Shown: in pieces, positions 4,695 through 26,947 of the stretch | Layout: each line of letters begins with the position of its first letter | Numbering within the stretch: position 1 is the first letter of the stretch | Sequence record: SRR20825010_6282 | Reading direction: 5' to 3' (one strand) | DNA: 30,115 bases | Translations under genes and position numbers: made by a program | Notes under the pieces: generated by a model | Database searches by the model: none | What the model was told of the DNA's origin: nothing | What the model saw: the letters and a program-made list of their open reading frames with translations, nothing else

Positions 4695-4698
4695 TACA

Positions 4699-6009: not shown

Positions 6010-6012
6010 TCA

Positions 6013-6573: not shown

Positions 6574-6577
6574 TTTT

Positions 6578-7117: not shown

Positions 7118-7517
7118 GGTTACAGTAAATTCCGTGTTTGAGTATGAATTTTCGTTCAATCAGACAGATGTTGAAAATTTCGCAAAGGCATCTGGAGACT
7201 TTAATCCCATTCACCTGGATGCAGAATACGCAAAAAAAACCATTTTTGGGCGTACAATTATACACGGCTTTCTAAGCGGAAGTATGTTCTCAAAGGTATT
7301 TGGTACTATCTTTCCAGGACATGGCACGATTTATTTAAATCAAAGTTTGAATTTTTTTAAGCCTATGTATACAGTAGAAGAGTACAAGGCGGTCTTTACA
7401 GTGAAGGAAGTTTATATTGAGAAACATAGAGCATTAATTACTACAGAAATATTTGATAGCCATAATCAAGTTACAATTTCTGGAGAAGCATTGATACAGC
7501 ACAATGATATTGCGTAA
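7107..7517 (+). CDS. MaoC/PhaJ-family (R)-specific enoyl-CoA hydratase
   Basis: FAKASGDFNPIHLDAEYAKKTIFGRTIIHG hydratase motif (D...H), FPGHGTIYLNQSLNFFKP; 136 aa hot-dog fold. Confidence 0.9.
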   Translation: MENKVTVNSVFEYEFSFNQTDVENFAKASGDFNPIHLDAEYAKKTIFGRTIIHGFLSGSMFSKVFGTIFPGHGTIYLNQSLNFFKPMYTVEEYKAVFTVKEVYIEKHRALITTEIFDSHNQVTISGEALIQHNDIA

Positions 7518-8550: not shown

Positions 8551-8566
8551 TCATTCACTTGTTCAA

Positions 8567-10834: not shown

Positions 10835-11665
10835 GTGAGTTTTAGCCAAGAAATAATACAAGGGAAGCGTTTTGAGTTTGGAAAGAACTGGAACTCATTT
10901 CTAAAGACATTGGATGATAAGCGAATAGAAGTAGCTATAGATTCATTGAAAGAAATGCTAGAGGTTGAAGATTTGGCTGGGAAGAAATTTCTTGACATTG
11001 GTAGCGGAAGTGGCCTTTTTTCTTTGGCAGCGAAAAAACTAGGAGCTGAAGTGTACTCTTTCGACTTTGATACGGATTCTGTAGGCTGTACAAAATATTT
11101 AAGGGATACTTATTTCCCTGAATCGAATTGGATAGTAGAAGAAGGTTCTGTTTTGGATGTTGACTATGTTAAATCTCTAGGACAGTTTGATGTTGTATAT
11201 TCTTGGGGAGTATTACACCATACTGGTCATATGTACAAGGCGCTTGATAATGCTGCACTTCCAGTTAAGAATGGAGGTAAACTTTTTATTGCCATTTATA
11301 ATGATGAGGGAGCTAAATCTAGGGTTTGGAAGAAGTTAAAAAGACTATATGTCAAATCTACAGCAGGAAAGTACCTCACTATTATGTTATATACGCCTTA
11401 CTATTTACTCAAGAACTTCCTCATGGATATTTTTTATTTAAGAAAGGCTCCATTGGTTAGGTACAGAGATTTTAAGAAGAAGAGAGGAATGTCTTGGAGA
11501 CATGATTTATTGGATTGGTTAGGTGGATACCCTTTTGAAGTAGCCCGTATTCCAGAAATTTTTAATTTTTATAAAAAGAGGGGCTTTGTAATGAATGTAG
11601 TCACTGCCAAGAAGGGCAAGGGCTGCAATCAATTTGTTTTCACAAAAGAAGAGCTTAATAAATAG
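10835..11665 (+). CDS. Class I SAM-dependent methyltransferase (UbiG-like, polysaccharide-locus type)
   Basis: FLDIGSGSG, FDVVYSWGVLHHTG, VKNGGKLFIAIYN, DWLGGYPFE; GTG start. Confidence 0.85.
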   Translation: MSFSQEIIQGKRFEFGKNWNSFLKTLDDKRIEVAIDSLKEMLEVEDLAGKKFLDIGSGSGLFSLAAKKLGAEVYSFDFDTDSVGCTKYLRDTYFPESNWIVEEGSVLDVDYVKSLGQFDVVYSWGVLHHTGHMYKALDNAALPVKNGGKLFIAIYNDEGAKSRVWKKLKRLYVKSTAGKYLTIMLYTPYYLLKNFLMDIFYLRKAPLVRYRDFKKKRGMSWRHDLLDWLGGYPFEVARIPEIFNFYKKRGFVMNVVTAKKGKGCNQFVFTKEELNK

Positions 11666-11682
11666 GTGTCGAAGCCATTTTC

Positions 11683-13575
11683 ATGTGTGGTATAGCCGGT
11701 TTTATAGATTTTTCTCATAACTCTTCAAAAGAGCAGCTCGTAGCGATGACAGATGTCTTGACGCATCGAGGACCCGATGCTAGTGGTTATGAGTATGCTC
11801 AGAACGAATTCTATCAATTGGGCTTTGGACACAGAAGACTATCAATTTTAGATTTGAGTGAAAATGGGCACCAACCGATGTACTCACCCGATGGCCAGTA
11901 TGCCATTGTGTTCAATGGAGAAGTGTACAATTTCCCTGAAATTCGGTCATGGCTACACGCTAAGGGCTACCGTTTTAAATCAAATTCGGATACAGAAGTA
12001 ATTCTCTATGCACTAATTGAAGAAGGCATTAAGGCCATCGATAGGTTTATAGGGATGTTTTCTATTGCTTTTGTGGATAAAGTAAAACAAGAGTTGTCCC
12101 TAATTAGGGATAGGGTAGGTGTTAAACCACTTTATTATTCTTGGGACAGTAAAACCCTACTTTTTGCGTCCGAAACTAGGGCTTTTCACAAGCATCCGAG
12201 CTTCAAAAAGAACCTGAATCCACGGTCAATCGCTAGTTACTTGGATTTTGATTATATCAAAGGTGGCGGATCTATCTTTGAATCTGTCAACTCGGTAAAA
12301 CCGGGACACTACGTTAAATTAGATTTGACTACGAAGGACATAACAGAATGTGAATATTGGTCTATTGATGACTCTTTTCAAAATGAAAATCAGACGGCTG
12401 ATCTAACAAAAACCATCGATGATTTGGATGATCTTTTAGTGGATGCATGCAAATTAAGAATGGTTTCAGATGTGCCTGTTGGTGTTTTTCTGAGTGGAGG
12501 GCTAGATAGTACAACTGTAGCAGCGATTCTTCAGAAACATCATTCCTCTACCATTTCTACCTTTACAATTGGCTTTGATGAGAAAGAGTTTAATGAGGCA
12601 GAAAAGGCGAAAGCCATAGCCAAATATTTAGGTACCGACCATCATGAGTTGTATTGTTCTGAAAATGAGTTGCTTGATATATTTCCTCGACTTCCAGAAA
12701 TATACGATGAGCCTTTTGCCGATAAATCGGCAATCCCAACTACTCTGGTGAGCGAATTTGCAAGGAAGCACGTTACAGTAGCCCTTTCTGCAGACGGGGG
12801 AGATGAGGTGTTTGCAGGCTATAATAAATATTCAAACGTTCTTGATCGTTACGCTCAAATTGCTGGACAAAGTGATTTTTTTAGGCGTGGAAAAAAGGAA
12901 ACCTATAAATTGCTCCATGAGTTGGCCTCATCTTTATCGGGGTCGCAATCAAAGGTGGCATTAAAGACCTTTTCCGAACTCAAGTACTTAGGGCAGTTTC
13001 CAGATGTTGTAGAAATGATGATTTCTAGCACTCAGAATTTCGGAAAGAGAGATTTGGAAAAACTGCTATCTACATACAAGGAAATCCATATAAGGAATAA
13101 TGTCATTCTGAATAGAGACCATTTGACTCAAATCCAAGCTTACGATTTCAAGGATTACCTACCCGATGATATTCTAATCAAGTTGGATAGAGCAGCGATG
13201 AGTGTGAGTCTTGAAGGACGTGAGCCTTTGTTGGACCATAGAATTGCGGAATTTGCAGCTAGGTTACCAAGTGATTTCAAAATAAGAGATGGGGTTAAAA
13301 AATACATATTAGCCGAAGTAAATGCCAAATATATTCCACGCAACCTTACTGAAGGGCCTAAGAAGGGTTTCGCTATTCCAAAGAAGAAATGGATGCATAT
13401 GCACTTAAAAGACCATGTAATGACCTATCTAAGTGATGTCAAGGTTAAAGATTCGGGAGTTTTTGATTTGAACTATGTTCGCGGATTAAGAAAGCAATAT
13501 GAAAGGGGTTATTCGAATAATAGAGTTTGGAACATAATGCTCTTTCAAATGTGGCACGAACGATGGATGAAGTGA
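11683..13575 (+). CDS. asnB: Asparagine synthase (glutamine-hydrolysing)-like amidotransferase, probably sugar-amidating
   Basis: MCGIAG (Ntn Cys), HRGPD, HRRLSILDL, FNGEVYN, RDRVGVKPLYY, LSGGLDS, SADGGDE, LEGREPLLD. Confidence 0.92.
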   Translation: MCGIAGFIDFSHNSSKEQLVAMTDVLTHRGPDASGYEYAQNEFYQLGFGHRRLSILDLSENGHQPMYSPDGQYAIVFNGEVYNFPEIRSWLHAKGYRFKSNSDTEVILYALIEEGIKAIDRFIGMFSIAFVDKVKQELSLIRDRVGVKPLYYSWDSKTLLFASETRAFHKHPSFKKNLNPRSIASYLDFDYIKGGGSIFESVNSVKPGHYVKLDLTTKDITECEYWSIDDSFQNENQTADLTKTIDDLDDLLVDACKLRMVSDVPVGVFLSGGLDSTTVAAILQKHHSSTISTFTIGFDEKEFNEAEKAKAIAKYLGTDHHELYCSENELLDIFPRLPEIYDEPFADKSAIPTTLVSEFARKHVTVALSADGGDEVFAGYNKYSNVLDRYAQIAGQSDFFRRGKKETYKLLHELASSLSGSQSKVALKTFSELKYLGQFPDVVEMMISSTQNFGKRDLEKLLSTYKEIHIRNNVILNRDHLTQIQAYDFKDYLPDDILIKLDRAAMSVSLEGREPLLDHRIAEFAARLPSDFKIRDGVKKYILAEVNAKYIPRNLTEGPKKGFAIPKKKWMHMHLKDHVMTYLSDVKVKDSGVFDLNYVRGLRKQYERGYSNNRVWNIMLFQMWHERWMK

Positions 13576-14664: not shown

Positions 14665-15813
14665 ATGAAAATCACCTACCTATCAGATTCAGCAATACCT
14701 TCAAAAAGAGCAAATAGTGTTCATGTAATGCATATGTGCAATGCATTCAGGGAGTTGGGGCATGAAGTTACCCTTTTCGGGCTTAAAGGGGATAATGCCA
14801 CTTTTGAAGAAACAATGAGTTGGTATGGGGTGTCTGGTTTTGATATTGAGCTTACAGCGCTAAGAATTCCAAAGCTTACACTTTGGTTACACGCGAAAAA
14901 TATGCTGCGTGCGGTAAAGAAGATACAACCGAATCTGATTTTCGGAAGATCACTTTACGGTTGTTACTTATTGGCTAGGAAGGGTTATAAGGTGTGTTTT
15001 GAAACGCACGACCCAATAAATGCATTCACAAAACAACAAGTAAAAATCTTCAATGGGCTTTTAAAATCCCCTAACTTGATTGGGCTTGTGGTGATTAGTG
15101 AGGCTTTGAAGAAAATCATACTGAGTCAAACAAAACTTATAAGCGAGGATCGAATTTTTGTGGCGCATGATGGCGCCACATTACAAAAAAACAATAATGA
15201 AGAGTTAGAGTCTTACCCTTGGCCGACTCAAGTGAATGGAAGGTTACAGATTGGCTATGTTGGTACAATTTCTAAAGGCCGTGGAATTGAATTGATTATT
15301 TCTCTGGCTGTGAAATTTAATGATTTGGATTTCCACATCATTGGAGGAAGAAAGGAAGACCTCTTAGGGATAGGTTTACAAGAGGTTGGCGAATTGAACA
15401 ACGTCTTTTTTCATGGCTTTGTGTCTCCCAGAGAAGCGGCAATGACCCGGAAAAAATGTGATGTTCTGCTAGCGCCTTATCAAGAGAATGTCACAATAAG
15501 AAGCGGGAAGAATACCGCTAAGTATATGTCTCCACTAAAGGTTTTTGAATATATGGAATCAGGTAAAGCCATCATAGCCTCGGATTTGCCGGTATTGAGG
15601 GAAGTGTTAGTGAATATGGACAATAGCATTTTATGTAATCCATCAGAAATAGAAGCTTGGCAAAAAGCTATCTCCCTTTTGGCTAACAATGAAAAGATCA
15701 GATTAGAACTTGGTTCAAAGGCCCAAACCCAGTTGATTAACAACTATTCTTGGAAAAAAAGGGCCGAACGAGTTAATTTATTTATTAGCGGAAAAAGTAG
15801 TTCTCTTAGTTAA
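14665..15813 (+). CDS. Glycosyltransferase family 4
   Basis: ANSVHVMHMCNAF, GYVGTISKGRG, SPLKVFEYMESGKAIIASD. Confidence 0.88.
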   Translation: MKITYLSDSAIPSKRANSVHVMHMCNAFRELGHEVTLFGLKGDNATFEETMSWYGVSGFDIELTALRIPKLTLWLHAKNMLRAVKKIQPNLIFGRSLYGCYLLARKGYKVCFETHDPINAFTKQQVKIFNGLLKSPNLIGLVVISEALKKIILSQTKLISEDRIFVAHDGATLQKNNNEELESYPWPTQVNGRLQIGYVGTISKGRGIELIISLAVKFNDLDFHIIGGRKEDLLGIGLQEVGELNNVFFHGFVSPREAAMTRKKCDVLLAPYQENVTIRSGKNTAKYMSPLKVFEYMESGKAIIASDLPVLREVLVNMDNSILCNPSEIEAWQKAISLLANNEKIRLELGSKAQTQLINNYSWKKRAERVNLFISGKSSSLS

Positions 15814-15844
15814 AGTCACATTTTCGAATTAAAATTATTTCAGC

Positions 15845-16600
15845 ATGAAGTTGTTAATGAGTCTTTACAGGCATGTACTCATTTTCGGGAGATCTGGTTT
15901 TCTGGTCTTTTGGAAAGTTAAAAATAAGCGTACAGACGAGATTAAAATAACGAAGGTTCGAACTCCAGTAAGCCTGAGAAGTGGAACAAGTGATGTACCA
16001 TTATTTTACGAGATTTTCTGGAAAGATGAATATGACTTTAACTTACCTTTTGACCCAGTGAATATAATTGATGCAGGTGCGAATATAGGTCTAGCAGCAC
16101 TCTTTTTTGCTAATAAATACCCCAATACCAAAATAGTTTCAATTGAGCCTGAGAAATCGAATTTTGATTTGATGAGTATCAATATAAAGGATTATCCAAA
16201 TATTATTCCACTAAGAAAAGGCCTTTCAAACTTGAGCAATCAAAAGATTGAAGTTCATGAAAGTGATAAAGGCAAATGGGGATTTACTACGGGATTAGTT
16301 TCAGACTCTTTAGTAGGTGATGAGCGAGTTATGTCGACAATCTCAATTGACGATATAATGGAGATGTATGATTTCCCTTACCTAGATATTGTTAAGATAG
16401 ACATTGAAGGAGCCGAGAAAGAGGTATTTGAATCGAATTATGAAAATTGGTTGCCTAAGACTCGTTGTCTCGTGATAGAGTTACATGATAGGTTACAGCT
16501 GGGTTGTTCAAAGAATTTCTTCAACGCCATAGGCGGATACAATTTTAGTTTATCACAGAAGGGAGAGAATTTAATTTTAATAAATCAAGATTTACTTTAG
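15845..16600 (+). CDS. FkbM-family methyltransferase
   Basis: IIDAGANIG, SIEPEKSNF, IVKIDIEGAE, IELH. Confidence 0.9.
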   Translation: MKLLMSLYRHVLIFGRSGFLVFWKVKNKRTDEIKITKVRTPVSLRSGTSDVPLFYEIFWKDEYDFNLPFDPVNIIDAGANIGLAALFFANKYPNTKIVSIEPEKSNFDLMSINIKDYPNIIPLRKGLSNLSNQKIEVHESDKGKWGFTTGLVSDSLVGDERVMSTISIDDIMEMYDFPYLDIVKIDIEGAEKEVFESNYENWLPKTRCLVIELHDRLQLGCSKNFFNAIGGYNFSLSQKGENLILINQDLL

Positions 16601-16652
16601 TGTAGCTCAAATCGTACTTATTTAGAAATTAGATAGATTTAAATTTACCACA

Positions 16653-16670
16653 ATACAGTATATACTGTAT
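16653..16670. promoter_or_regulatory. Perfect 18-bp palindrome in a 110-bp intergenic gap; candidate operator
   Basis: ATACAGTATATACTGTAT equals its own reverse complement and ends 40 bp upstream of the ATG at 16711. Function is inferred only. Confidence 0.4.
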
Positions 16671-16710
16671 GAGGATATGATTTTGAATTTGAGTATAAAT
16701 AACTTCCACA

Positions 16711-17460
16711 ATGAATGTAGCCATAATCACTGCCCGTGCGGGCAGTAAATCCATCATCAATAAGAATATTTTAGAGGTAAAGGGTAAACCCCTGATCTAC
16801 TACCCAATTAAGGCATCGTTGGATGCGCTTAAAATTGACAAAGTTTTTGTATCAACCGATGGTGAGGGCATAGCTGAGGCCGCAGAGAAATATGGGGCTA
16901 CCGTTATTCCTCGTCCAGATGAATTGGGGGGCGACAGTATTAATCATGGCGAGGTCATCAAGCATGCAGTGGAATGGGTAGATCAACGTTATGAAAACCT
17001 TGAGAATGTGGTTTTACTGCTTGGGAATACGGTTTATATTGATGGTGGTATCATTGATAAATGCCTCCAGAAACTCGATGATGAGAAGAACCTCGATTCC
17101 TGCATGACCGTCTGGGAAGCACAGGATGATCACCCACTAAGGGCAATGGAAATTGCGGAAAATGGTCTTTTAAGGCCTTATGGCAACGTAGAGCGTAATG
17201 TGTCAACAGAAAGGCAGTCTTATCAAAAAGCCTATTATTACGATCAAGGAGTATGGGCTTTTAGGAAATATACAGTTCAAAGCCATGATGGACCGAATCC
17301 GTGGTGGTGGATGGGTAAAAATTCGGCTCCTATTATTCGTACCTGGGTTACGGGTCGTGATATCCATACCTATTTCGATGTAGGGATTAGTGAATGGTGG
17401 CTTGAAGGATTGGATAAAATAAAGGAAGTACTGAGTAAATCTTCCGAAGATGGCTTATAG
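16711..17460 (+). CDS. Acylneuraminate/Kdo-type cytidylyltransferase (divergent NeuA-like)
   Basis: IITARAGSKSIINKN, VSTD, RPDELGGD; the usual LQPTSPLR is replaced by LLGNTVYI. Confidence 0.8.
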   Translation: MNVAIITARAGSKSIINKNILEVKGKPLIYYPIKASLDALKIDKVFVSTDGEGIAEAAEKYGATVIPRPDELGGDSINHGEVIKHAVEWVDQRYENLENVVLLLGNTVYIDGGIIDKCLQKLDDEKNLDSCMTVWEAQDDHPLRAMEIAENGLLRPYGNVERNVSTERQSYQKAYYYDQGVWAFRKYTVQSHDGPNPWWWMGKNSAPIIRTWVTGRDIHTYFDVGISEWWLEGLDKIKEVLSKSSEDGL

Positions 17461-18376
17461 AATACTAACTACAACTTCTTCTTTCGGTAAAGTAGACCCA
17501 GCTCCTTTGGCCTTACTCAAAGCGAAGGGTTTTGAGGTAACAGTGAATCCTTATGGCAGAAAACTGTCTGAACAAGAATCAATAGAAATACTGAGTGACT
17601 ATGATGGTTTAATAGCTGGCACAGAATCGCTTAATGAAGAGGTGCTGAATGCCGCGAGAGACTTGAAATACCTGTGTAGGATGGGGGCAGGGATGGATAA
17701 TGTGGATTTCAATACAGCTAAAAGACTTAATATCACCGTTGAAAATACACCGAGTGCCCATGTAGATGGTGTCGCTGAGCTTACTCTTGGAGGTATTTTA
17801 TCTAGCCTGAGAAGTCTTGCTAACGCCCATACGAATATCACCAATGGTATTTGGGAAAAACCAATGGGCAGTTTGTTGAAGGGGAAAACGGTCGGTATTA
17901 TTGGCTTGGGGAGGGTCGGTTGCCGACTTGTTGAGTTACTTGCTCCTTTCAAAGTGAAGGTCTTGGCCTTTGATTTATATGAAAATCCTGAGTTTGCTGA
18001 AAAACAGAATGTAGCCTATGTAGCCATCGATGAATTGATCAGGGCATCAGATATTATCAGTATTCACACGCCTTTTTCACCGGAGGCCAAGCATATGGTC
18101 AGTACAGAGTTTTTCACCAAAGCTAAGAGGAACCTGTGTTTGGTGAACGCATCACGTGGCGGTTTGGTAAATGAGGATGCATTACTTGAGTTTTTGAATT
18201 CAAATCCCACGGCTTCTGCTTATCTTGATACTTTCGAAGTAGAGCCATACATAGGGCCTTTAAGTAAATTAAAGAACTGCACACTTACTCCTCATATTGG
18301 TTCTTACGCCAGTGAAGTAAGAATTAATATGGAAATGGAAGCTGCACAAAATGTGATTAAATTCTTTAAAAAATAA
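17450..18376 (+). CDS. D-isomer-specific 2-hydroxyacid dehydrogenase (phosphoglycerate dehydrogenase-like, no ACT domain)
   Basis: RMGAGMDNVD, VAELTLG, GIIGLGRVG, NASRGG (Arg), FEVEP (Glu), TPHIGS (His); only 308 aa. Confidence 0.88.
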   Translation: MAYRILTTTSSFGKVDPAPLALLKAKGFEVTVNPYGRKLSEQESIEILSDYDGLIAGTESLNEEVLNAARDLKYLCRMGAGMDNVDFNTAKRLNITVENTPSAHVDGVAELTLGGILSSLRSLANAHTNITNGIWEKPMGSLLKGKTVGIIGLGRVGCRLVELLAPFKVKVLAFDLYENPEFAEKQNVAYVAIDELIRASDIISIHTPFSPEAKHMVSTEFFTKAKRNLCLVNASRGGLVNEDALLEFLNSNPTASAYLDTFEVEPYIGPLSKLKNCTLTPHIGSYASEVRINMEMEAAQNVIKFFKK

Positions 18377-19251
18377 TGAGCAAAGTTTTAGTAACAGGAG
18401 GGTCAGGGTTTTTAGGTAGCCACATAGCCGATGCGCTTTCTGATATCGGGCATGAGGTTACTATTTTTGATCAGGTAGCATCACCCTTTTTGCGGAAGGA
18501 TCAAAGTTTCATTCATGGCGATATTCGTGAGGCTGAAAAACTTGTAAAGCAACTTTCAGGCTTTGAATATGTGTATCATTTAGCTGCCATGGCTGATTTG
18601 AATGCCGCCAAAAACCGTCCTGTAGATACAGTCTCAATAAATATTCAAGGCACAGTCAATATGCTTGAGGCTTGCAGAATCAATAAGGTTAAACGATTTG
18701 TTTTTGGCTCTACAGTATATGTATATAGTCGCGAAGGCAGCTTTTACCGGTGCAGTAAGCAAGCAAGCGAAAACTATGTTGAGGAATACTTCAATCAGTT
18801 TGGATTAGAATATACGATTCTCAGATACGGTAGCCTTTATGGACCCAGGGCCGATATGGCAAACGGAGTTTACCGTTTGCTGAAAAATTTCATGGATCAA
18901 GATGAAATGGAACATAGTGGTAAATCAAACGATAAGCGTGATTACATTCATGTCTTTGATGCTGCCAGATTAAGTGCTTCAATTCTAGATCCACAGTACG
19001 TCAATAAAAATTTAGTATTGACAGGAAATGATAAATTAGAGATTGCTGATTTGTATAAAATGTTCAGTGAAATTTTGGGCAAAGAAGTGAAAATTAGATT
19101 CTTGGGTGACGAAGGCACTACTAATGGACATTACAATATTACGCCTTACGCTTATACCCCGAAAATTGGTCACAAACTGGTTTCTAATGAATATGTAGAT
19201 ATGGGACAGGGGCTTATTCAAGTTATTGAAGAGATTGATTCGATTCACTGA
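18376..19251 (+). CDS. NAD-dependent epimerase/dehydratase (extended SDR)
   Basis: TGGSGFLG, YHLAA, NIQGTVN, YRCSK (YxxxK), LRYGSLYGP, RDYIHVFD; TAATG overlap with the upstream gene. Confidence 0.88.
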   Translation: MSKVLVTGGSGFLGSHIADALSDIGHEVTIFDQVASPFLRKDQSFIHGDIREAEKLVKQLSGFEYVYHLAAMADLNAAKNRPVDTVSINIQGTVNMLEACRINKVKRFVFGSTVYVYSREGSFYRCSKQASENYVEEYFNQFGLEYTILRYGSLYGPRADMANGVYRLLKNFMDQDEMEHSGKSNDKRDYIHVFDAARLSASILDPQYVNKNLVLTGNDKLEIADLYKMFSEILGKEVKIRFLGDEGTTNGHYNITPYAYTPKIGHKLVSNEYVDMGQGLIQVIEEIDSIH

Positions 19252-19308
19252 TTCTTTAAATAACAAAAGTTCTTTCGTTTCCCCACATTCAAACTCGTAT
19301 TCCTTTCA

Positions 19309-19971
19309 ATGACAATAAAACCAATTTCATATACAGAACTAAGAAATTACTCATGCATGTTCTTCGATTTTGACGGTGTGGTGTTAGAGTCAGCTAATAT
19401 AAAAACCGATGCTTTTGTAGAGCTATATGCAGGAACTGGTATTGAAGAGCAAGTAAGAGAACATCATTTGGCACATCAAGGCGTAGCGCGATATGAGAAG
19501 TTCAAGTGGATTTCTGAAAACCTGATAAAACAGGAGCATACTGAGGAAATCGGGCTTGAATTGGGAGATAAATTTTCAGGGCTAGTAAAGGCCAAAGTGT
19601 TAGCAGCACCGTTTGTTCCTGGTTTTCGTGAAATGATCACCTTTATCCGACAACAAAACATTTATTGTGTGGTAGCTTCTGGTACTCCCCAAGAAGAATT
19701 GAGAGATATTATTATAAATCGAAAACTAAGTCCATTCTTTGACGAAGTTTATGGCAGCCCGAGGAAAAAAGCTGAGATTACACTAGAAGTAATGCAAAGG
19801 AAACAGTTTAGAAAAGAAGATTGCCTCTTCTTTGGTGATGCAAGCACCGATCACCAAGCAGCGGAACAAACTAATATCGATTTCTTTGCCAGGTTAACCC
19901 CCGAACTTTTTGATTATTGGGAAAGTGCAACATATAAATATGGAGCACTTGACTTCTCAAAAATGCAATAG
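19309..19971 (+). CDS. HAD-superfamily hydrolase (phosphatase)
   Basis: FDFDGV (motif I), VASGT (II), GSPRKK (III), FGDASTD (IV). Confidence 0.88.
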   Translation: MTIKPISYTELRNYSCMFFDFDGVVLESANIKTDAFVELYAGTGIEEQVREHHLAHQGVARYEKFKWISENLIKQEHTEEIGLELGDKFSGLVKAKVLAAPFVPGFREMITFIRQQNIYCVVASGTPQEELRDIIINRKLSPFFDEVYGSPRKKAEITLEVMQRKQFRKEDCLFFGDASTDHQAAEQTNIDFFARLTPELFDYWESATYKYGALDFSKMQ

Positions 19972-19977
19972 TTAACA

Positions 19978-21087
19978 ATGTCGAAACGATTAAAAATTCT
20001 TTTTGTACGACCTTCTTTGGGCTATGGTGGTGCCGACAGAGTAACGGTGAATCTACTTCAGGCCTTTGACCGAGATAAATTTCAATGTGATTTAGCTTTA
20101 ATGCGTGCCGAAGGTGAGTTTTTAGACCAAAGCCCAAACGATGTTCAACTTTTTGATCTTAAGTCTAAATCACTCTGGTCGATGTGGAAACCTCTTAAGA
20201 AGTTGATTTCTGACGGTGATTATAATGTAGTGTACTCTACCTGTGGGGGGGCTTCAATGCCTATGATGCTGGCTGCCTGGCTTGGTCGGTTTAAAGGGAT
20301 TACTGTTGTTTCAGAAAGAAACATCCTTTTTCCTCCAAAAAAGAGCAAGGCTAAAAGACGATTAATGATTTTAATTAAGGCTTTCCTCTATAAAAAGGCA
20401 ACATGGGTAACCGCTGTTTCACAAGGTGTAGCCATGGAATGTAGAGATATACTTGGTGTGAAATCAGAACGGATTAAAGTAGTTTATAATCCCATTGTAA
20501 ACAAGACACTGTTGGAAGGGGCCAGAGAACAGGTTAACCATCCATTCTTTAGTCAATATGATCAAGTCATATTAGCTGTGGGGCGCTTTAAATGGCAGAA
20601 GGATTATGACACTTTATTGAGGGCCTTTAAAAAGGTGACCGAGTCCACTGAGCGTGTTGGCCTATTTCTTTTAGGAAAGGGACCCTTAGAAAGTCACTAT
20701 CGCACGAAAGTGGTTGGAATGGGATTGAAAGATAAAGTGTGTTTTGCTGGCTTTGATAAGAATCCGTTTAAATATATGGCGGCTTCAGATGTTTATGTAT
20801 TAAGTTCCAGACATGAAGGAATGCCTGGTACGCTTGTACAAGCTATGGCTTGTGGGGCAGCCTGTATTGCAACAGATTGCCCCACAGGTCCCAACGAGTT
20901 AATAATCGATGGTGAAAATGGGTACTTGGTGGAAGTCGCTGATGATTCGGTCATGGCCGAAAAAATATTCAACTTATTGATTCATAATGATTTAAAATCA
21001 AAATTCAGAAACTTGGCTCCGATTGCGGTAGAGCAATATTCTGAAAAGAATGGAGTAGTCTCCTATTTCAATTTTCTAGAAAAATGA
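19978..21087 (+). CDS. Glycosyltransferase family 4 (WabH/PglJ-like)
   Basis: GGADRV, YNPIV, AVGRFKWQKDY, GFDKNPFKYM, SSRHEGMPGTLVQAMACG, TDCPTGPNE. Confidence 0.9.
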   Translation: MSKRLKILFVRPSLGYGGADRVTVNLLQAFDRDKFQCDLALMRAEGEFLDQSPNDVQLFDLKSKSLWSMWKPLKKLISDGDYNVVYSTCGGASMPMMLAAWLGRFKGITVVSERNILFPPKKSKAKRRLMILIKAFLYKKATWVTAVSQGVAMECRDILGVKSERIKVVYNPIVNKTLLEGAREQVNHPFFSQYDQVILAVGRFKWQKDYDTLLRAFKKVTESTERVGLFLLGKGPLESHYRTKVVGMGLKDKVCFAGFDKNPFKYMAASDVYVLSSRHEGMPGTLVQAMACGAACIATDCPTGPNELIIDGENGYLVEVADDSVMAEKIFNLLIHNDLKSKFRNLAPIAVEQYSEKNGVVSYFNFLEK

Positions 21088-22202
21088 AGCTAGCCATTCT
21101 TATTACCAACCCTAACCACCATTTAGAGCTTACCATTGAAGCGGCTAAATTAATTAAGACAAAAGGGCATCATGTTACTTATGTGTCTCTTTGTGAACTT
21201 AGAAGAATGGCTAGCCCAGAAGATACCTTCAAAAGTCACGGACTTGACTATATTAAATTTCAAAATATTTCTCAAAATTTGAAGCCTAGTTCAGGTAAGC
21301 GTACTTTGGGTAAAAGCGATTCTTTAATAAGGTCCGTGGTAAGAAGGGCCTTTTGGCTTATTAAACTTAAACCTTTCATTAAAAAGGCATTTTCTGGTTT
21401 TGATAAAGTCTTGCTGATGAATGACGCAGCTTTTCCTGGAGATAAAATATGCGAATGGCTAAAGCTTAAATCAATACCCTTTTATCTTTTGCAAGAAGGA
21501 ATTAGGTTTCCGTTACCCAATGAGACAGAAATTAAATACGGAGCGAACGGAGCACAAAAGGTGATGGTTTGGGGAGAGCGTTCTGCTAAACATTTTAGGC
21601 CTATTGTTTCTACTATAACAGAAGTGGTGGTCACCGGCTCGCCAAGGTTTAATAAGTTTTTGGAGGATATCCATCCCCATCTGATGAACGAGGCTAAACA
21701 AAAGATTTTAGGCATATTTACCAACCCTATTGACGATCAAGGATTTTGCAGCCCCGAGGCTAAACTTGATTTGTTCGAGAGATTTGTGCAACGAGCTGCT
21801 TCACAGATAAAAAACATGAATATTCAGCTTGGCATTAAATGTCACCCCCGTGAAGATATTCAGGAATATTTAACCATTGCCAATAAGTATTTACCAATAA
21901 TTGAATTACCTAAATCGATTGTAGAAGCAATTTTAATGGTGGATGCCGGTGTAATTATGGCTTCTACCGTAGGTTTAGAGCTTATGGGGGCAAAGAGGGG
22001 GCTGGCTCAATTGGAAATAACAAATCATGGCTTCGTTTTCGATTACAACGAAAGCTCTGATTTACTCAAGATACCATTAGAGGGGGACTTCGATTTATCG
22101 GTTCTTTTCGGTGAGCCAACTGAAAATTCTTATTTTTATGAACACATTGCCATTGGGAATGCCGCCCAGAAGATTACTTCCGTTTTAACAGAAGCATGTT
22201 AG
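21084..22202 (+). CDS. Putative GT-B glycosyltransferase, sialyl/ulosonyl-transferase-like
   Basis: LLQEG, VWGE, VTGSPRF, IKCHPRE (HP motif), STVGLE resemble CMP-sugar/CDP-polyol transferases; weak motif-level evidence only. Confidence 0.5.
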   Translation: MKLAILITNPNHHLELTIEAAKLIKTKGHHVTYVSLCELRRMASPEDTFKSHGLDYIKFQNISQNLKPSSGKRTLGKSDSLIRSVVRRAFWLIKLKPFIKKAFSGFDKVLLMNDAAFPGDKICEWLKLKSIPFYLLQEGIRFPLPNETEIKYGANGAQKVMVWGERSAKHFRPIVSTITEVVVTGSPRFNKFLEDIHPHLMNEAKQKILGIFTNPIDDQGFCSPEAKLDLFERFVQRAASQIKNMNIQLGIKCHPREDIQEYLTIANKYLPIIELPKSIVEAILMVDAGVIMASTVGLELMGAKRGLAQLEITNHGFVFDYNESSDLLKIPLEGDFDLSVLFGEPTENSYFYEHIAIGNAAQKITSVLTEAC

Positions 22203-23446
22203 ATATTTTTAAGCATACATTAGGAGCAAAAGGATGGTTAAGAGCATGGGCTATTTATCTGATGGCCTTCCCGTTTTATTTTTTCCCAGCAGGTAGTGCC
22301 CAACCCTCTGATATATTCATTGTGGTCATAATTGGCTTGTATGTTTTAGCCCGTAAGTTTAACCTCAGTGGTTCACTTATGGAGTCTTTTTCTCGATTTA
22401 TGAGGTTCTGTGTGTACATCACCATCGTTAATTTAGGAGTGTTCATTTCTTTACTCGGAGAGGCGAATAAGGGCTTGCCATGGTTTGTTTTTAGCGCTTT
22501 TTATTTTTACAACTTGTTTGTCATGGGGTTTGCACTGTCTCTGTATCGACAATATGGTAAACGATTTCTATACACAACGGCATATAGCTGCTTAATAGCT
22601 GCGGCACTTCAGATTACATTGTCATTCATTTTGGAAACAGGAGGTGAGGGCGTAAGGGGAGCTTTGTTTTTCACCAATCCAAATCAATTGGGTTATTACT
22701 CTCTATGTGGTTTAGCCATAGTATTGGTATTGGAAACCATGATTAAACTACCAAAACTGATGGTCTACCTTGGGTTCTTTCTTTTTAGCTATCTGGCTTT
22801 GATAAGTGTTTCTAAGGCAGCAATGGGTGCTATGGTGATTCTTTTTGGGGTCTATTTGTTGGCCAATGGAATACTTTCTACAAGAAATATATTTGCATTA
22901 ATAGTAGTAGGAGGGCTGGGCGTGTTTGGATTAACAAAGACCGAATTCGGTGCTAATTTTCAGCGAAATCTTGAAGCAAGAAATCTTAACGAAGCCGATC
23001 GACCAGAGGAGATTACAGAGTGGCAATATCGAGGTTATGATAGAATCTCAAATCATCCAGAATATATGGTTTTTGGAGCAGGAGAAGGGGGCTATAATCG
23101 ATTCGATACATTTATTGAAGGGCACGAAATGCACTCATCATTTGGGACAATTGTTTTCTGCTATGGCATACCAGGTACTGTCTTGTTTGTAATGTTTATT
23201 TTCTCTTTACTGAAGAAGCTACCGTGGTACTACGTAGTATACTCCTTACCATTGTTTGCTTATGGTGTCACCCACATGGGCTTACGGTTTACAATTTTTT
23301 GGATCGCATTGATGATGTTTCCAATTATTCGAGTGGAAAGAAGTAAGCTGAAGTTTGTAAAAATGTATTTGATGAAAAAGAGAGAAAAGGAAAGGGCTGA
23401 GGCTCTTTTGAATAAGCCTAGTCTTTTGAACCATAACGTTTCATAA
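22196..23446 (+). CDS. O-antigen polymerase/ligase-family (Wzy_C-like) membrane protein
   Basis: Roughly ten or more hydrophobic segments, NPNQLGYY, a periplasmic loop, and HSSFGTIVFCYGIPG near the C-terminus. Confidence 0.75.
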   Translation: MLDIFKHTLGAKGWLRAWAIYLMAFPFYFFPAGSAQPSDIFIVVIIGLYVLARKFNLSGSLMESFSRFMRFCVYITIVNLGVFISLLGEANKGLPWFVFSAFYFYNLFVMGFALSLYRQYGKRFLYTTAYSCLIAAALQITLSFILETGGEGVRGALFFTNPNQLGYYSLCGLAIVLVLETMIKLPKLMVYLGFFLFSYLALISVSKAAMGAMVILFGVYLLANGILSTRNIFALIVVGGLGVFGLTKTEFGANFQRNLEARNLNEADRPEEITEWQYRGYDRISNHPEYMVFGAGEGGYNRFDTFIEGHEMHSSFGTIVFCYGIPGTVLFVMFIFSLLKKLPWYYVVYSLPLFAYGVTHMGLRFTIFWIALMMFPIIRVERSKLKFVKMYLMKKREKERAEALLNKPSLLNHNVS

Positions 23447-23454
23447 GTAGCAGG

Positions 23455-24627
23455 ATGATAAATGAGAATAAGCGACCTCTCAAGTTGTTAAGGCTTACTA
23501 CCGTTCCAATGTCACTATCTCTTCTATTGAATGGTCAATTCTCTTATTTTAAGAGTGTTGGATTCAGTGTAGAAGTTGGATCAGCAGCAGGTCCAGAAAT
23601 AGAAAGCATAATTGATAATGAAAATGTAGTTCACCATCAATTTCCATTTAGTCGAGAAATCTCTCCGCTAAGAGATTTGAAAGCGCTGTTTCTCGTCATT
23701 AGGTTTTTGAAGAACAACACTTTTGATATCGTTCATACGCATACCCCTAAAGCGGGTTTAATTGGGATGTTGGCTGCCTGGTTTTGTAAGGTTCCTGTGC
23801 GTATGCATACCGTAGCGGGACTTCCGCTGATGGAAACCAAGGGTTTTAAAAGAAGAGTCTTGATGTTGGTTGAGCGCATAACTTACCGTTGTGCGACAAA
23901 GGTTTACCCCAATTCTTTTGCTCAGAGGGAATATATTAGCAAGAATATATTCTCTAAAAGTGTAAAACTGAAGGTCATAGGCAATGGGAGTAGTAATGGT
24001 ATTAATTGTGATTACTTTCGACCTTCTTCAGTGTTAATTGAAAAGGCAGAGCAGATTAGATCAGAGCTCAAAATTCCCTTCGATAAACATGTAGCAATTT
24101 TTGTTGGCAGGGTGACAGGTGATAAAGGTATTAATGAGCTTGTTAATGCTTTCAAAACGATTGAAGACTTGGATTTGATTTTGGTAGGACCTTTAGAATC
24201 AGAACTGAGTCCATTGGAAGCTTCTGTAATGAATGAGATTGAGGTAAACCCAAAAATACATTTGGTTGGTTTTCAATCAGATGTTCGCCCCTATTTATTG
24301 GCTAGCAACTTTTTGGTCTTCCCCAGTTATCGTGAAGGATTCCCTAATGCACCTATGCAAGCAGGTGCCATGGGCATACCTTGCATAGTAAGTAACATCA
24401 ATGGTTGTAATGAAATTATAATTAACGAGAAAAATGGTTTGCTCATACCTCCAAAGAATGTAGAAGATATAAGACGGGCAATCTTGCTGTTGGTAGAAGA
24501 ACCAACATTAATGGATTACTTAACACATAACGCAAGGCGAATGATTGTTGAACGATATGATCAGAAATTCCTTTGGGAAGCATTGCATTTAGAGTATCAG
24601 GACCAAATACAGAGATATGTACATTAA
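23455..24627 (+). CDS. Glycosyltransferase family 4 (CapM-like; probable second-sugar transferase)
   Basis: [58 protein letters not shown]. Confidence 0.9.
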
Positions 24628-25222
24628 ATACTTTAAACGTATCTTCGATTTTTGCGGGGCATTTCTTTTGTTATTATTCGCAAGTCCTCTCTTGGTAGTG
24701 GTGACTTTGTGGTTGAGTATTGTGAATTCTGGTCGACCATTTTTTTTTCAGCTCAGACCAGGTAAACATGAGAAGGTATTCAAAATTATAAAGTTTAAAA
24801 CGATGACAGATAAAAAGGATTCAAAGGGTACTTTGCTTCCTGACGATCAACGGTTGACAACTGCTGGTAATTGGGTAAGGAAACTGTCGATCGATGAGTT
24901 TCCTCAAATGATAAATGTTTTAATAGGAGATATGTCCCTAATTGGCCCGAGACCACTTTTAGTCGAATATTTACCTCTTTATTCTGAGGAACAACAGAGA
25001 AGGCATAACGTTCGCCCTGGTATTACTGGTTGGGCACAAGTTAATGGTAGAAATGCTCTAAATTGGAAAAGAAAGTTTGAAATGGATGTATGGTATGTTG
25101 ATCATGGTTCTTTTTTATTAGACTTGAGAATCTTGTTTTTGACAGTGAAAAAGGTGCTCCTTTCCGAAGGAATTAGTGGAGAAGGAGTAATGACAATGGA
25201 GAAATTTAAAGGTAATTTATGA
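24617..25222 (+). CDS. pglC: Undecaprenyl-phosphate sugar phosphotransferase (PglC-like initiating transferase)
   Basis: [48 protein letters not shown]; 201 aa monotopic type. Confidence 0.88.
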
Positions 25223-25818
25223 TCCTTATTGGAGCTTCTGGGCATGCAAAAGTCATATTGGATATTCTTGAACAGAATGGAGTTAATGTAGAGTGTCTGG
25301 TAGACGCTAATCCTAGCCTTACTTCCCTATGTGGATATACTGTGGAGCATGACTCCACTTTTGATTTTGAAGGAAAGGAAGCTATTCTGAGTATTGGGTC
25401 AAATAAAATTAGAGAAAAGCTTAGTGATTTACTGCCATGTACGTTTACAACTGCGATTCATCCTAAAGCAATTCTAGATAAGACGGTGAAGATTGGAGAA
25501 GGTACCGTGGTTATGGCCGGAGCTGTGCTTAATCGAGATGCTGCAGTAGGCAAGCATGTAATAATTAATACATCTGCATCTGTAGATCATGATAATCTTC
25601 TAAAAGATTATGTTCATATTAGTCCTAATGCTACCCTTTGCGGAACAGTAGCTGTTGGTGAAGGAACACATATTGGGGCTGGCGCTACAATAATTCCTAA
25701 TGTAAGTATAGGTAAATGGGCTATAATTGGAGCTGGTGCAGTCGTAATTAACGATATCCCAGACTATGCAGTTGCGGTAGGTAATCCGGCTAGAATAATT
25801 AGGTATATCAATGAGTAA
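25219..25818 (+). CDS. pglD: PglD/NeuD-family hexapeptide-repeat sugar acetyltransferase
   Basis: [25 protein letters not shown], hexapeptide repeats, VGNPAR. Confidence 0.88.
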
Positions 25819-26947
25819 TGACAGGATATGGCTTTCATCTCCCCACATGGGAGGTAGCGAGCTTAAGTACGTAAAGGAAGCCTTTGACACCAACTGGATT
25901 GCTCCATTGGGGCCTAATGTCGATAATTTTGAAAAGGAATTAGGAGAGTATTTATCTGTAGATCACGTTGCCGCATTGTCCAGCGGTACAGCTGCCATTC
26001 ATTTGGCATTAATTATTTTAGGTGTTAAGCCAGGAGATGAAGTCATAGCCCAGAGCTTCACTTTCTGCGGGACAACGAACCCCATATTATATTTAGGAGC
26101 AACACCGGTTTTAGTTGATAGTGAAAAGGATACTTGGAATCTCGATCCTGTTTTACTCGAAGAAGCTATTCTTGATCGAGTCAAAAAAGGAAAAAAGCCA
26201 AAAGCAGTCATTATGGTTCACCTTTATGGTATGCCTGCTCGGATAAAAGAACTCTTAGAGGTATGTAATCGCTATGATGTTCCTTTAATAGAGGATGCAG
26301 CGGAAGCATTGGGCTCTGTCATTGACGGTAAGCAGGCAGGTAGTTTTGGCCATTTTGGTATTCTGTCTTTCAATGGAAATAAGATCATTACAACCTCTGG
26401 TGGAGGAGCATTAGTAAGTGATAATAAAGAATGGATTGAAAAATCTCGTTTTTTAGCCACTCAAGCTAGAGATGAATCACCTCACTATGAACACACCGAA
26501 CTAGGCTATAATTACCGGATGTCAAATATTTTGGCAGGTGTCGGTCGCGGACAATTAGAAGTACTGGGTAATCATATTTTAAAAAGGAGAGAGGTTAACG
26601 CATATTATCGCAAACATTTAAATCTTGAAAGGCTTTACTTTCAGTCCGAAATGAGTGGGGTAGATTTATCTAATTATTGGTTAACTTCAATCAAGATTGA
26701 ACCGGAGTTACTAGGGGTAAGCCGTGAAGATATTCGACTTGAATTGTGGAAAAGTAATATAGAAACTCGACCTCTTTGGAAGCCAATGCATTTACAACCT
26801 TTGTATAAGGATTGTCCATATTATGGTCATGGCATCAGTGATGAGCTGTTCTTGAAGGGATTGTGTTTGCCGTCTGGCTCTAATTTGACTTTAGTAGAAT
26901 TGGAAAGAGTGGTCATTGGGTTTAATAAAGCGATCAAAAAACTGTGA
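25811..26947 (+). CDS. pglE: DegT/DnrJ aminotransferase (PglE/EpsN-like UDP-4-keto-6-deoxy-GlcNAc transaminase)
   Basis: IWLSSPHMGG, NWIAPLGPNV, EDAAEALG, SFNGNKIITTSGGG, GYNYRMSN, RPLWKPMHLQP, CLPSGS. Confidence 0.88.
   Translation: MSNDRIWLSSPHMGGSELKYVKEAFDTNWIAPLGPNVDNFEKELGEYLSVDHVAALSSGTAAIHLALIILGVKPGDEVIAQSFTFCGTTNPILYLGATPVLVDSEKDTWNLDPVLLEEAILDRVKKGKKPKAVIMVHLYGMPARIKELLEVCNRYDVPLIEDAAEALGSVIDGKQAGSFGHFGILSFNGNKIITTSGGGALVSDNKEWIEKSRFLATQARDESPHYEHTELGYNYRMSNILAGVGRGQLEVLGNHILKRREVNAYYRKHLNLERLYFQSEMSGVDLSNYWLTSIKIEPELLGVSREDIRLELWKSNIETRPLWKPMHLQPLYKDCPYYGHGISDELFLKGLCLPSGSNLTLVELERVVIGFNKAIKKL

Follow-up and report, generated by a model that had tools for sequence, protein, structure and literature searches.

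The 30,115-nucleotide stretch of DNA from sequence record SRR20825010_6282 that we analyzed (hereafter, the window) is a single co-directional glycan locus of a Roseivirga-like member of the Bacteroidota, with a GC content of ~38%. It carries a cassette of four genes (16711–19971) that encode a cytidylyltransferase, two dehydrogenases, and a phosphatase, followed by three genes that travel with the cassette. Our leading interpretation, which we hold with moderate confidence, is that this seven-gene module (16711–23446) produces a 2-ulosonic acid of six carbons, most likely 2-keto-D-gluconate (D-arabino-hex-2-ulosonate), activates it with cytidine monophosphate (CMP), and links it to a glycan of the cell surface, using neither a phosphoenolpyruvate (PEP)-condensing synthase nor an aldolase. 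It appears likely that the cassette is a conserved, synthase-independent route to a CMP-activated acidic sugar, undescribed in the literature searched. The evidence consists of the gene families and their intact catalytic residues, the conservation of the gene set, its independence from the NeuB, KdsA, and HpcH families, and a genomic tie to the 6-phosphogluconolactonase gene (pgl).

Could an ulosonic acid be made without PEP? To our knowledge, every characterized route to a CMP-ulosonic acid, be it 3-deoxy-D-manno-octulosonate (Kdo), 3-deoxy-D-glycero-D-galacto-nonulosonic acid (Kdn), N-acetylneuraminic acid (Neu5Ac), legionaminic acid (Leg), pseudaminic acid (Pse), or one of their relatives, condenses PEP with a sugar. 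To turn a hexose 6-phosphate into a free 2-keto-aldonate, a pathway must carry out exactly two oxidations, open one ring, and remove one phosphate, a demand that matches two dehydrogenases, a phosphatase, and pgl. We infer all the substrates and the order of the steps as follows. The extended short-chain dehydrogenase (SDR) would oxidize C1 of hexose-6-phosphate to the 6-phospho-1,5-lactone, as Zwf does, and a 6-phosphogluconolactonase, whose gene is part of the cassette in some lineages but not linked to it in that of the window, would open the ring to give 6-phosphogluconate. The D-2-hydroxyacid dehydrogenase (2HADH) would then oxidize C2 to yield 2-keto-6-phosphogluconate, from which the phosphatase (HAD) would remove the 6-phosphate, leaving 2-ketogluconate. 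Finally, the cytidylyltransferase (CT2) would join the hemiketal hydroxyl to CMP, producing CMP-hex-2-ulosonate; a KpsC-like protein of GT-B fold (unk1) would transfer the sugar, possibly modified further, and a glycosyltransferase (GT4c) and a membrane protein (unk2) would build or polymerize the acceptor.

Four Enzymes with Intact Catalytic Residues

The 30 open reading frames (ORFs) of the window were scanned against Pfam, and selected proteins were compared with NCBIfam models at their curated cut-offs. The four core genes, all on the + strand, encode CT2, a NeuA/PseF-like cytidylyltransferase of the CTP_transf_3 family (16711–17460, 249 aa); 2HADH, which is PGDH-like and lacks an ACT domain (17450–18376, 308 aa); the NAD-type SDR (18376–19251, 291 aa); and HAD, a HAD-IA phosphatase (19309–19971, 220 aa). 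The overlap is 11 nt between CT2 and 2HADH and 1 nt between 2HADH and the SDR. The families, positions, overlaps, and quoted motifs were all as an initial annotation, made from the letters of the window, had given them, as judged from ORFs, Pfam, and alignments. None of the four proteins reaches the cut-off of any named NCBIfam equivalog.

CT2 matches PF02348 (CTP_transf_3) with 66 bits (cut-off, 22.6) over profile positions 1–119 of 217 only; with a family profile, its alignment to NeuA extends to residue 187. The closest solved structure is the Vibrio cholerae NeuA 6ifd (E 3e-21, improving to 4.2e-28 when the family profile is used), and all relatives of CT2 among the solved structures are CMP-Neu5Ac or CMP-Kdo synthetases. 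CT2 remains below the cut-offs of both the PseF model TIGR03584 (109.6 bits versus 205.7) and the KdsB models (30.9–43.5 bits versus 155–281). CMP-ulosonate synthetases bind cytidine triphosphate (CTP) through an N-terminal loop with the motif A-R-x-G-S-K ... K-N. In the CT2 translation, this loop reads ITARAGSKSIINKN and aligns with its counterpart in three NeuA structures; its residues R9, G11, S12, K13, K18, and N19 do not vary among the 13 family members aligned, and the H-P-L-[RK] and R-Q stretches of CT2 also align with NeuA. On the other hand, the sugar-loop motif L-Q-P-T-S-P of NeuA is missing. CT2 has LLLGNTVYI where the V. cholerae and Neisseria meningitidis NeuA proteins have LLQPTSPL, and L104-G-N-T-V108 is invariant across the CT2 family. 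The C-terminal 60 residues include a D217-x-H219 pair and the tryptophan-rich GPNPWWWMG, in which P197-W-W-W-M-G202 is again invariant in all 13 aligned members. The best 120 of 817 database relatives of CT2 are 65–95% identical to it and come from several phyla. CT2 is predicted to be a CMP-hex-2-ulosonate synthetase.

2HADH matches the Pfam families 2-Hacid_dh_C (163.7 bits) and 2-Hacid_dh (91.4 bits), and its closest PDB structure is 1wwk (E 5.4e-50). The Arg/Glu/His catalytic set of 2-Hacid_dh enzymes is present as R236, E265, and H282, invariant in 22 of 22 sequences. The protein scores 232.1 bits with the PGDH model TIGR01327 (cut-off, 454), 152.5 with PRK11790 (cut-off, 404), and 135.8 with NF011938 (cut-off, 492), the model of the 2-ketogluconate/glyoxylate-hydroxypyruvate reductase GhrB. 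Its gene sits in a glycan locus, not with serine-pathway genes. The same superfamily also holds 2-ketogluconate reductases and 2-keto-6-phosphogluconate reductases, KguD among the latter. Because the family of 2HADH has D-2-hydroxy acids as its specific substrates and 2HADH is similar to PGDH, whose substrate is a phosphorylated member of this class, we assign to it the oxidation of 6-phosphogluconate at C2 and predict that it is a 6-phosphogluconate 2-dehydrogenase that forms 2-keto-6-phosphogluconate.

The SDR matches the Pfam Epimerase family with 150.6 bits. The glycines of its GxxGxxG motif (G8, G11, and G14) are invariant, as are S112, Y124, and K128 in 26 of 26 sequences; S112 precedes the Y124-x-x-x-K128 segment with a 12-residue spacing, and the protein has a conserved C-terminal domain. 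We predict a hexose-6-phosphate 1-dehydrogenase that substitutes for Zwf, the alternative prediction being a CMP-sugar epimerase.

HAD-superfamily phosphatases have four motifs, including the DxD nucleophile pair, and the HAD translation contains F-D-F-D-G-V, S-G-T, a lysine in S-P-R-K-K, and G-D-A-S-T-D (GDxxxD). The protein matches HAD_2 (60.2 bits) and Hydrolase (53.4 bits) in Pfam. Among the NCBIfam families, it comes nearest to the beta-PGM/YqaB subfamily (E 5.3e-10) and to 6-phosphogluconate phosphatase (E 1.8e-7), staying far below both cut-offs, and none of its 11 NCBIfam matches is of the KdsC or Kdn-9-phosphate phosphatase type. HAD is a predicted 2-keto-6-phosphogluconate 6-phosphatase.

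The Gene Set Is Conserved Across Phyla

We surveyed one genome per prokaryote species (185,579 genomes), in which 133 of 279 pattern-matched stretches encoded a CT2 relative. The best 80 loci were kept, searched by tblastn with the 30 proteins of the window, and their ORFs were clustered to find recurrent neighbors. According to the record titles, these loci come from the Bacteroidota, Planctomycetota, Acidobacteriota (Thermoanaerobaculia), Chloroflexota, Myxococcota, and Gammaproteobacteria. Among the 47 full loci, i.e., those with at least 5 kb on either side of CT2, the SDR and HAD are each present in 46 and 2HADH in 43, so the set is conserved. The cassette, which the initial annotation called an orphan, is no peculiarity of the window: it represents a family that occurs in at least six phyla. 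The gene order is 2HADH-SDR-CT2-HAD in the Chloroflexota and Acidobacteriota and CT2-2HADH-SDR-HAD elsewhere, which argues for selection on the gene set rather than inheritance as a single block.

The three genes downstream of HAD co-travel with the core, GT4c being present in 39, unk1 in 35, and unk2 in 30 of the 47 full loci. The functional unit in the window thus comprises seven genes: the four that had been proposed as the cassette hold as its core, and the unit extends beyond them through 19978–23446. Furthermore, a Gfo/Idh/MocA oxidoreductase recurs in 12 of the 80 loci, and it is present in three of the four full loci that lack 2HADH and in the only full locus that lacks the SDR. Such substitution for a missing dehydrogenase fits two required oxidations.

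Independence from Known Ulosonate Synthases

The window has a single NeuB-family gene, pseI of the Pse module (7504–8550, 521.9 bits), and no KdsA or aldolase family was found among its 30 ORFs in the Pfam scan, in agreement with the initial annotation. NeuB (at least 40% identity, within 8 kb) occurs in only 3 of the 47 full loci. We then examined five cassette-bearing genomes (G002–G006) for synthases at any location; as these are based on metagenome-assembled genomes (MAGs), absence from them is not proof. True NeuB was found in only one of the five, the Roseivirga genome G006 (286 and 278 bits). Six weak NeuB matches in the other four genomes (29–42 bits) were rejected as DAHP synthases, scoring 248–270 bits with DAHP_synth_1, and five of the six also have a ferredoxin-like domain. 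KdsA passed its cut-off in G003, G004, and G006 and fell below it in both Chloroflexota (130 bits in G002 and 122 bits in G005 versus a cut-off of 314). The HpcH aldolase passed its cut-off in three of the five genomes, never near the cassette; it had no match in G003 and a match of only 20.8 bits, below the cut-off, in G005. No aldolase-like family appeared among the recurrent neighbor clusters of the 80 loci.

Consequently, G005, as represented by its MAG, lacks all three known ulosonate-forming families. These results bear out the view of the initial annotation that the cassette forms a CMP-activation unit in its own right rather than a spare activator, and it is unlikely that CT2 merely activates Pse, Neu5Ac, or Kdo.

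A Genomic Tie to 6-Phosphogluconolactonase

A pgl gene lies inside the cassette in 14 of the 80 loci, with a representative copy (L020) scoring 136.1 bits against the TIGR01198 cut-off of 124.45. Scored genome by genome, the cassette-borne copies reach 103.6–153.2 bits; nine of the 14 pass the cut-off, four score 103.6–115.4 bits, and the copy in G032 is fragmentary (65.6 bits). The latter, in a Stagnimonas MAG (L032, G032:C167:83167-83694), is split into two fragments of 65.6 and 51.6 bits and is possibly frameshifted or degraded. The gene sits between HAD and GT4c in the Bacteroidota and directly 5' of CT2 in two Myxococcota loci, which looks like independent recruitment. In all 14 genomes, the cassette-borne copy is the sole pgl-like gene of at least 100 bits (in G032, it is the best-scoring, fragmentary one), and 13 of the 14 genomes have no zwf.

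We next tallied the genes of the pathway in 57 cassette-bearing genomes, counting pgl as present at 100 bits or more; one of these, G058, is marked as unpublished, and without it each tally shifts by one and the conclusions are unchanged. The zwf gene was found in 25 genomes, gnd in 31, pgl in 50, and gluconokinase in 18. Of the 32 genomes without zwf, 25 retain pgl, 13 of these copies being cassette-borne, and pgl is likewise retained in 20 of the 26 genomes that lack both zwf and gnd. In a control sample of 151 Cytophagales genomes, CT2 was present in 2, zwf in 41, and pgl in 41, with pgl and zwf occurring together in 40; the sole genome with pgl and no zwf was the cassette-bearing G013 (R. 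echinicomitans). Put differently, pgl was found in 0 of 109 zwf-less Cytophagales that lack the cassette compared with 17 of 17 zwf-less Bacteroidota that bear it. The nominal Fisher p-values are tiny and are uncorrected for shared ancestry; the independent occurrences in the Myxococcota and Gammaproteobacteria help in this respect. A stricter rule suggested by a five-versus-five comparison, that pgl is cassette-borne only where zwf is absent, failed as complementarity, with 19 zwf-less genomes having no cassette-borne pgl.

The SDR is present in all 32 loci of the zwf-less genomes, and the three SDR-less loci in the 57 genomes (L028, L029, and L056, all from the Planctomycetota) lie in zwf-positive genomes. 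Because the 32 genomes need a lactone source other than Zwf, we assign the first step to the SDR.

The nearest relatives of the window, the Roseivirga genomes G012–G016, have CT2 proteins 95–98% identical to that of the window. They have lost zwf and gnd and keep intact pgl (191–201 bits) and gluconokinase (125–165 bits) genes 1–1.5 kb apart, and no edd above the cut-off was found in the four of them tested. They are thus left with a lactone that has no canonical source and 6-phosphogluconate that has no canonical consumer, and the cassette can supply both the source and the sink. In their sister G006, pgl, zwf, gnd, and gntK all lie within ~6 kb. In G013, a mechanosensitive-channel gene stands between pgl and the GntK-type gluconokinase gene (L087, G013:C7:25000-38500), and G020 has lost zwf and gnd and kept pgl, with gntK not found in it.

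Genes That Travel with the Core

GT4c (19978–21087, +) is a GT4 glycosyltransferase (Glyco_trans_1_4, 113.8 bits). The next gene, unk1 (21084–22202, +), has no Pfam match at E ≤ 0.1. Its AlphaFold2 model, with a predicted local distance difference test (pLDDT) score of 88.7, shows a GT-B fold, and its sequence carries a K-x-H-P-R-E motif, of which H254 and E257 are invariant and P255 is not. When a profile of the unk1 family was compared with PDB sequences, KpsC, a beta-Kdo transferase, was matched at E 0.013–0.016 across the stretch with K-x-H-P and S-x-x-G-x-E; the next matches, to the 5fa0/8cs* group, which we take to be WbbB, were far weaker (E 1.6). Among the 120 listed relatives of unk1, precomputed assignments give PF05159 (Capsule_synth) in nine, PF07388 (polysialyltransferase) in two, and PF02350 (Epimerase_2) in two. 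Its language-model neighbors show the same mix of families together with clusters labeled CDP-glycerol glycerophosphotransferase or Glyphos_transf (TagF-like), and a Foldseek search gave generic GT-B matches. A profile comparison of unk1 with the Capsule_synth-like gene of the window (8498–9940) returned a probability of 11%. We predict that unk1 is a KpsC/KpsS-like transferase that uses a cytidine-nucleotide donor. The last gene of the module, unk2 (22196–23446, +), encodes a polytopic membrane protein with a hydrophobic translation and no Pfam match, possibly a Wzy- or ligase-like polymerase.

Which further genes accompany the module depends on the lineage. Directly 5' of the cassette in the window is an FkbM-family methyltransferase gene (15845–16600, +; TIGR01444, 71.9 bits versus a cut-off of 37.7), a candidate for lineage-specific tailoring that occurs in only 2 of the 47 full loci. 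In other lineages, the cassette itself contains a methyltransferase of the Methyltransf_23 or TylF family, and the use of three different methyltransferase families suggests optional O-methylation. In L013, L017, L023, and L041, several sulfotransferase genes (Sulfotransfer_1 and _3) occur in or beside the cassette, and one of those in L017 fills the position left by the absent 2HADH. These Bacteroidota and Acidobacteriota may accordingly have sulfated glycans.

A nucleotide-sugar 6-dehydrogenase gene (TIGR03026, 408 bits; UDP-ManNAc-dehydrogenase-like) lies just 5' of the cassette in 15 loci, recorded under L034–L043, L047, L060, L062, L071, L073, L076, and L078, from the Chloroflexota, the Acidobacteriota, and a 'Multivoradales' MAG (L035). 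In six or seven Chloroflexota loci, two conserved proteins, one of them TPR-rich by eye, are encoded between this gene and 2HADH. A CBS-domain nucleotidyltransferase, presumably PtmE-like and of the kind typical of GDP-GlcNAc-dependent Leg pathways, recurs 5' of the cassette in six Bacteroidota loci (L004, L009, L020, L022, L024, and L030); the adjoining nonulosonate module would thus vary between Pse and Leg while the cassette remains constant.

Neighboring Modules of the Window

The cassette is placed between a Pse module on its 5' side and a diNAcBac-type initiation module on its 3' side. The Pse module (207–8550) forms the 5' end of the locus and has equivalogs of PseB (498.2 bits; cut-off, 407.75), PseC (452.9; 423.5), PseH (147.5; 93.1), and PseI (521.9; 340.25). 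It also has its own CTP_transf_3 gene, CT1 (3936–4694, 113.6 bits), as the initial annotation had recognized. No PseG hydrolase or PseF equivalog was recognizable in the module, and CT1 has no match to the PseF model at E ≤ 0.001. A Pse bearing an uncommon N-acyl group is suggested by the additional genes of the module, which encode a methyltransferase, a MaoC dehydratase, a second GNAT, an aldo-keto reductase, and an aminotransferase of class III (GSA-like). The Pse transferase is probably the 480-aa protein encoded directly 3' of pseI (8498–9940), which weakly matches Capsule_synth (E 1.4e-7) and also matches a BFO_1060-family glycosyltransferase domain (E 1.2e-4).

Among the glycosyltransferase genes that follow, the region 10835–13575 contains a methyltransferase gene and a gene for an AsnB-type glutamine amidotransferase (630 aa), homologs of which recur close to the cassette in several Roseivirga loci. 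This suggests that the repeat unit contains a uronic or ulosonic acid amidated at its carboxyl group. The initiation module (24617–28848) consists of Bac_transf followed by PglD-, PglE-, and PglF-like genes, as identified with Pfam. A pattern scan of 15500–23600 for promoters and terminators remained at chance level (21 versus 22.1 expected and 2 versus 5.0 expected), with consensus patterns that are unsuited to the Bacteroidota.

Alternative Explanations

Several observations weigh against the proposed route from hexose-6-phosphate to CMP-2-ketogluconate. 2HADH is missing from 4 of the 47 full loci and is nearer to the PGDH model than to the GhrB model (232 versus 135.8 bits). A structural alignment of unk1 ranks NeuC and UDP-GlcNAc 2-epimerases at the top (Z 20–23.7), with glycosyltransferases at Z ~19, so that both a transferase and an epimerase or hydrolase are compatible with its fold, and the KpsC match is weak (E 0.013). 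Seven of the 57 cassette-bearing genomes have no pgl of at least 100 bits, gluconokinase was found in only 18 of them, and the pgl-like protein may act on another lactone. Moreover, the genomes are mostly MAGs of uncertain completeness, and the counts are without phylogenetic correction.

The match of the SDR to the Azf model NF041293 is only 34.7 bits (cut-off, 400) and is confined to the Rossmann part, residues 3–134; the proposed Zwf-like role is hypothetical and draws on genomic context, not on membership in the Azf family. The best solved relatives of the SDR are UDP-sugar 4-epimerases (4zrm, E 1e-25; 6dnt; 2p5u; 6wjb), and its top NCBIfam matches are LegB (100.7 bits; cut-off, 475) and GalE (82.4 bits; cut-off, 262.3).

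Could the SDR then act at the end of the same CMP-hex-2-ulosonate route rather than at its start? As a GalE-like epimerase or oxidoreductase, it would work on the CMP-sugar to give, for example, the D-lyxo or L-xylo epimer, and 6-phosphogluconate would come from an unlinked Zwf, gluconokinase, or other dehydrogenase. Besides its structural relatives and its conserved C-terminal domain, the retention of the SDR in 22 of the 25 zwf-positive genomes and the position of gluconokinase next to pgl in the relatives of the window speak for this possibility. On the other hand, the 25 zwf-less genomes that keep pgl imply that the lactone is made somehow, gluconokinase yields 6-phosphogluconate without any lactonase and is confined to the 18 genomes, and L029 replaces the SDR by a Gfo/Idh/MocA dehydrogenase, from a family of oxidoreductases and not epimerases. 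An epimerase role, which the SDR may have, would leave the lactone source of the zwf-less genomes unexplained. We regard this version of the route as unlikely overall; for the SDR considered by itself, the role of a first, Zwf-like C1 dehydrogenase is at least as likely as that of an epimerase. The initial annotation had proposed a redox route in which HAD removes a phosphate before CMP is added and the SDR epimerizes or oxidizes; gene content and the tie to pgl support the formation of the 2-keto acid by oxidation and the phosphatase before CMP transfer, and the SDR is not necessarily an epimerase.

A second alternative departs from the CMP-ulosonate altogether. In it, CT2 would make a phospho-acid or polyol linked to cytidine diphosphate (CDP), such as CDP-6-gluconate or CDP-glycerate, and unk1 would be a TagF-like phosphotransferase that adds a phosphodiester substituent. 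The TagF-like labels among the language-model neighbors of unk1 and its alignment with TarL at Z 19.0 are in keeping with this, and CDP-alditol pathways do pair a cytidylyltransferase with an SDR reductase. However, the membership of CT2 in CTP_transf_3, its solved relatives, and the retained NeuA-aligned H-P-L-[RK] and R-Q stretches speak against it, and the near-universal phosphatase (46 of 47 full loci) would destroy the very phosphate that CDP activation requires. This makes the alternative quite improbable. A glycerate or 2-hydroxyglutarate substituent, which the initial annotation had offered as another product, finds no supporting gene: for example, no acyl or ester transferase is tied to the cassette.

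Third, an unlinked aldolase or synthase might make a 3-deoxy-ulosonic acid, with the four genes supplying precursors, tailoring, and activation. 2HADH and HAD could, for instance, make hydroxypyruvate from 3-phosphoglycerate. Such a scheme is very improbable given the distribution of HpcH, which is never near the cassette and is without a passing match in G003 and in G005, the latter also without NeuB and KdsA; no aldolase-like family recurs among the neighbors, and the tie to pgl would be left unexplained. The last alternative, that CT2 is the PseF, NeuA, or KdsB for an acid from the PseI of the window or the KdsA of the cell and that the other three genes are passengers, can take support from the higher score of CT2 than of CT1 with the PseF model and from the Pse module having neither a PseF nor a PseG equivalog, but it is highly improbable, as CT2 is below the PseF cut-off, the cassette occurs in four of five tested genomes without true NeuB and in two without KdsA, and NeuB accompanies it in only 3 of the 47 full loci versus 43–46 for 2HADH, the SDR, and HAD.

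Relation to Known Pathways and Significance

The proposed route resembles the CMP-Kdo pathway (KdsD, KdsA, KdsC, and KdsB) and the phosphorylated routes to CMP-Kdn and CMP-Neu5Ac in that dephosphorylation by a HAD enzyme is followed by activation by a CTP_transf_3 enzyme and then, as predicted for unk1, by a GT-B transferase with an HP-type motif. It differs from them in lacking a PEP-condensing synthase (KdsA or NeuB), in some hosts genome-wide, the keto acid being proposed to arise from two oxidations of a hexose. Compared with the Kdo and Kdn routes, its phosphatase is of the capped HAD-IA/beta-PGM type with no KdsC-family match, and the proposed sugar has six carbons and is not 3-deoxy.

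Haloarchaeal Azf, an SDR-type NAD-dependent glucose-6-phosphate dehydrogenase, is a precedent for an 'epimerase/dehydratase' SDR that replaces Zwf; since the SDR of the window is not an Azf member, the resemblance would be functional and is hypothetical. The proposed intermediate, 2-keto-6-phosphogluconate, and the enzyme superfamily of 2HADH are shared with the Pseudomonas kgu system and with E. coli GhrB/TkrA. The enzymes of 2-ketogluconate utilization in Pseudomonas include the kinase KguK and the 2-keto-6-phosphogluconate reductase KguD, and the kgu operon is described in PMC11678583. The kgu pathway is catabolic and reduces the keto acid to the hydroxy acid, whereas the cassette would run in reverse, pulled by the phosphatase and CTP.

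In the literature searched, we found no description of the cassette, the pathway, or CMP-hex-2-ulosonate, and the only six-carbon 2-ulosonic acid found there in a bacterial glycan was that of the E. coli K3 capsule, a 4-deoxy-2-hexulosonic acid. This sugar forms a side branch with a very labile ketosidic linkage, as described in a passage of a preprint (bioRxiv 10.1101/2025.01.29.635457); Dengler et al. 1988, on the K3 hexulosonic acid, is among the references of PMC10433991, a passage of which gives the K3 gene cluster as undetermined at that time. The likeness to the proposed product is a six-carbon 2-ulosonic acid in a surface polysaccharide; the difference is that the K3 sugar is 4-deoxy. 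The passages of the SugarBase preprint that we consulted report new CMP-ulosonic acids, none of them six-carbon.

Taking the phylogenetic spread and the proposed chemistry together, we suggest tentatively that glucose-6-phosphate is converted along a purely oxidative route to CMP-2-keto-D-gluconate, or a close derivative, in bacteria of at least six phyla, and that these present an ulosonic acid of six carbons at the cell surface. If so, nature would have found a second, independent solution to the ulosonate handle, by oxidizing an ordinary hexose phosphate. The borrowing of the first two oxidative pentose-phosphate reactions would explain why pgl is retained after the loss of zwf and gnd. With the pathway would come a new nucleotide sugar and also a new class of surface residues, acid-labile and easily missed by standard glycan analysis, and the cassette provides candidates for the genes behind six-carbon ulosonic acids, that of the E. 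coli K3 capsule among them. The pathway would also give a function to a highly conserved family annotated as 'acylneuraminate cytidylyltransferase', the presence of which would then not be evidence of sialic-acid synthesis.

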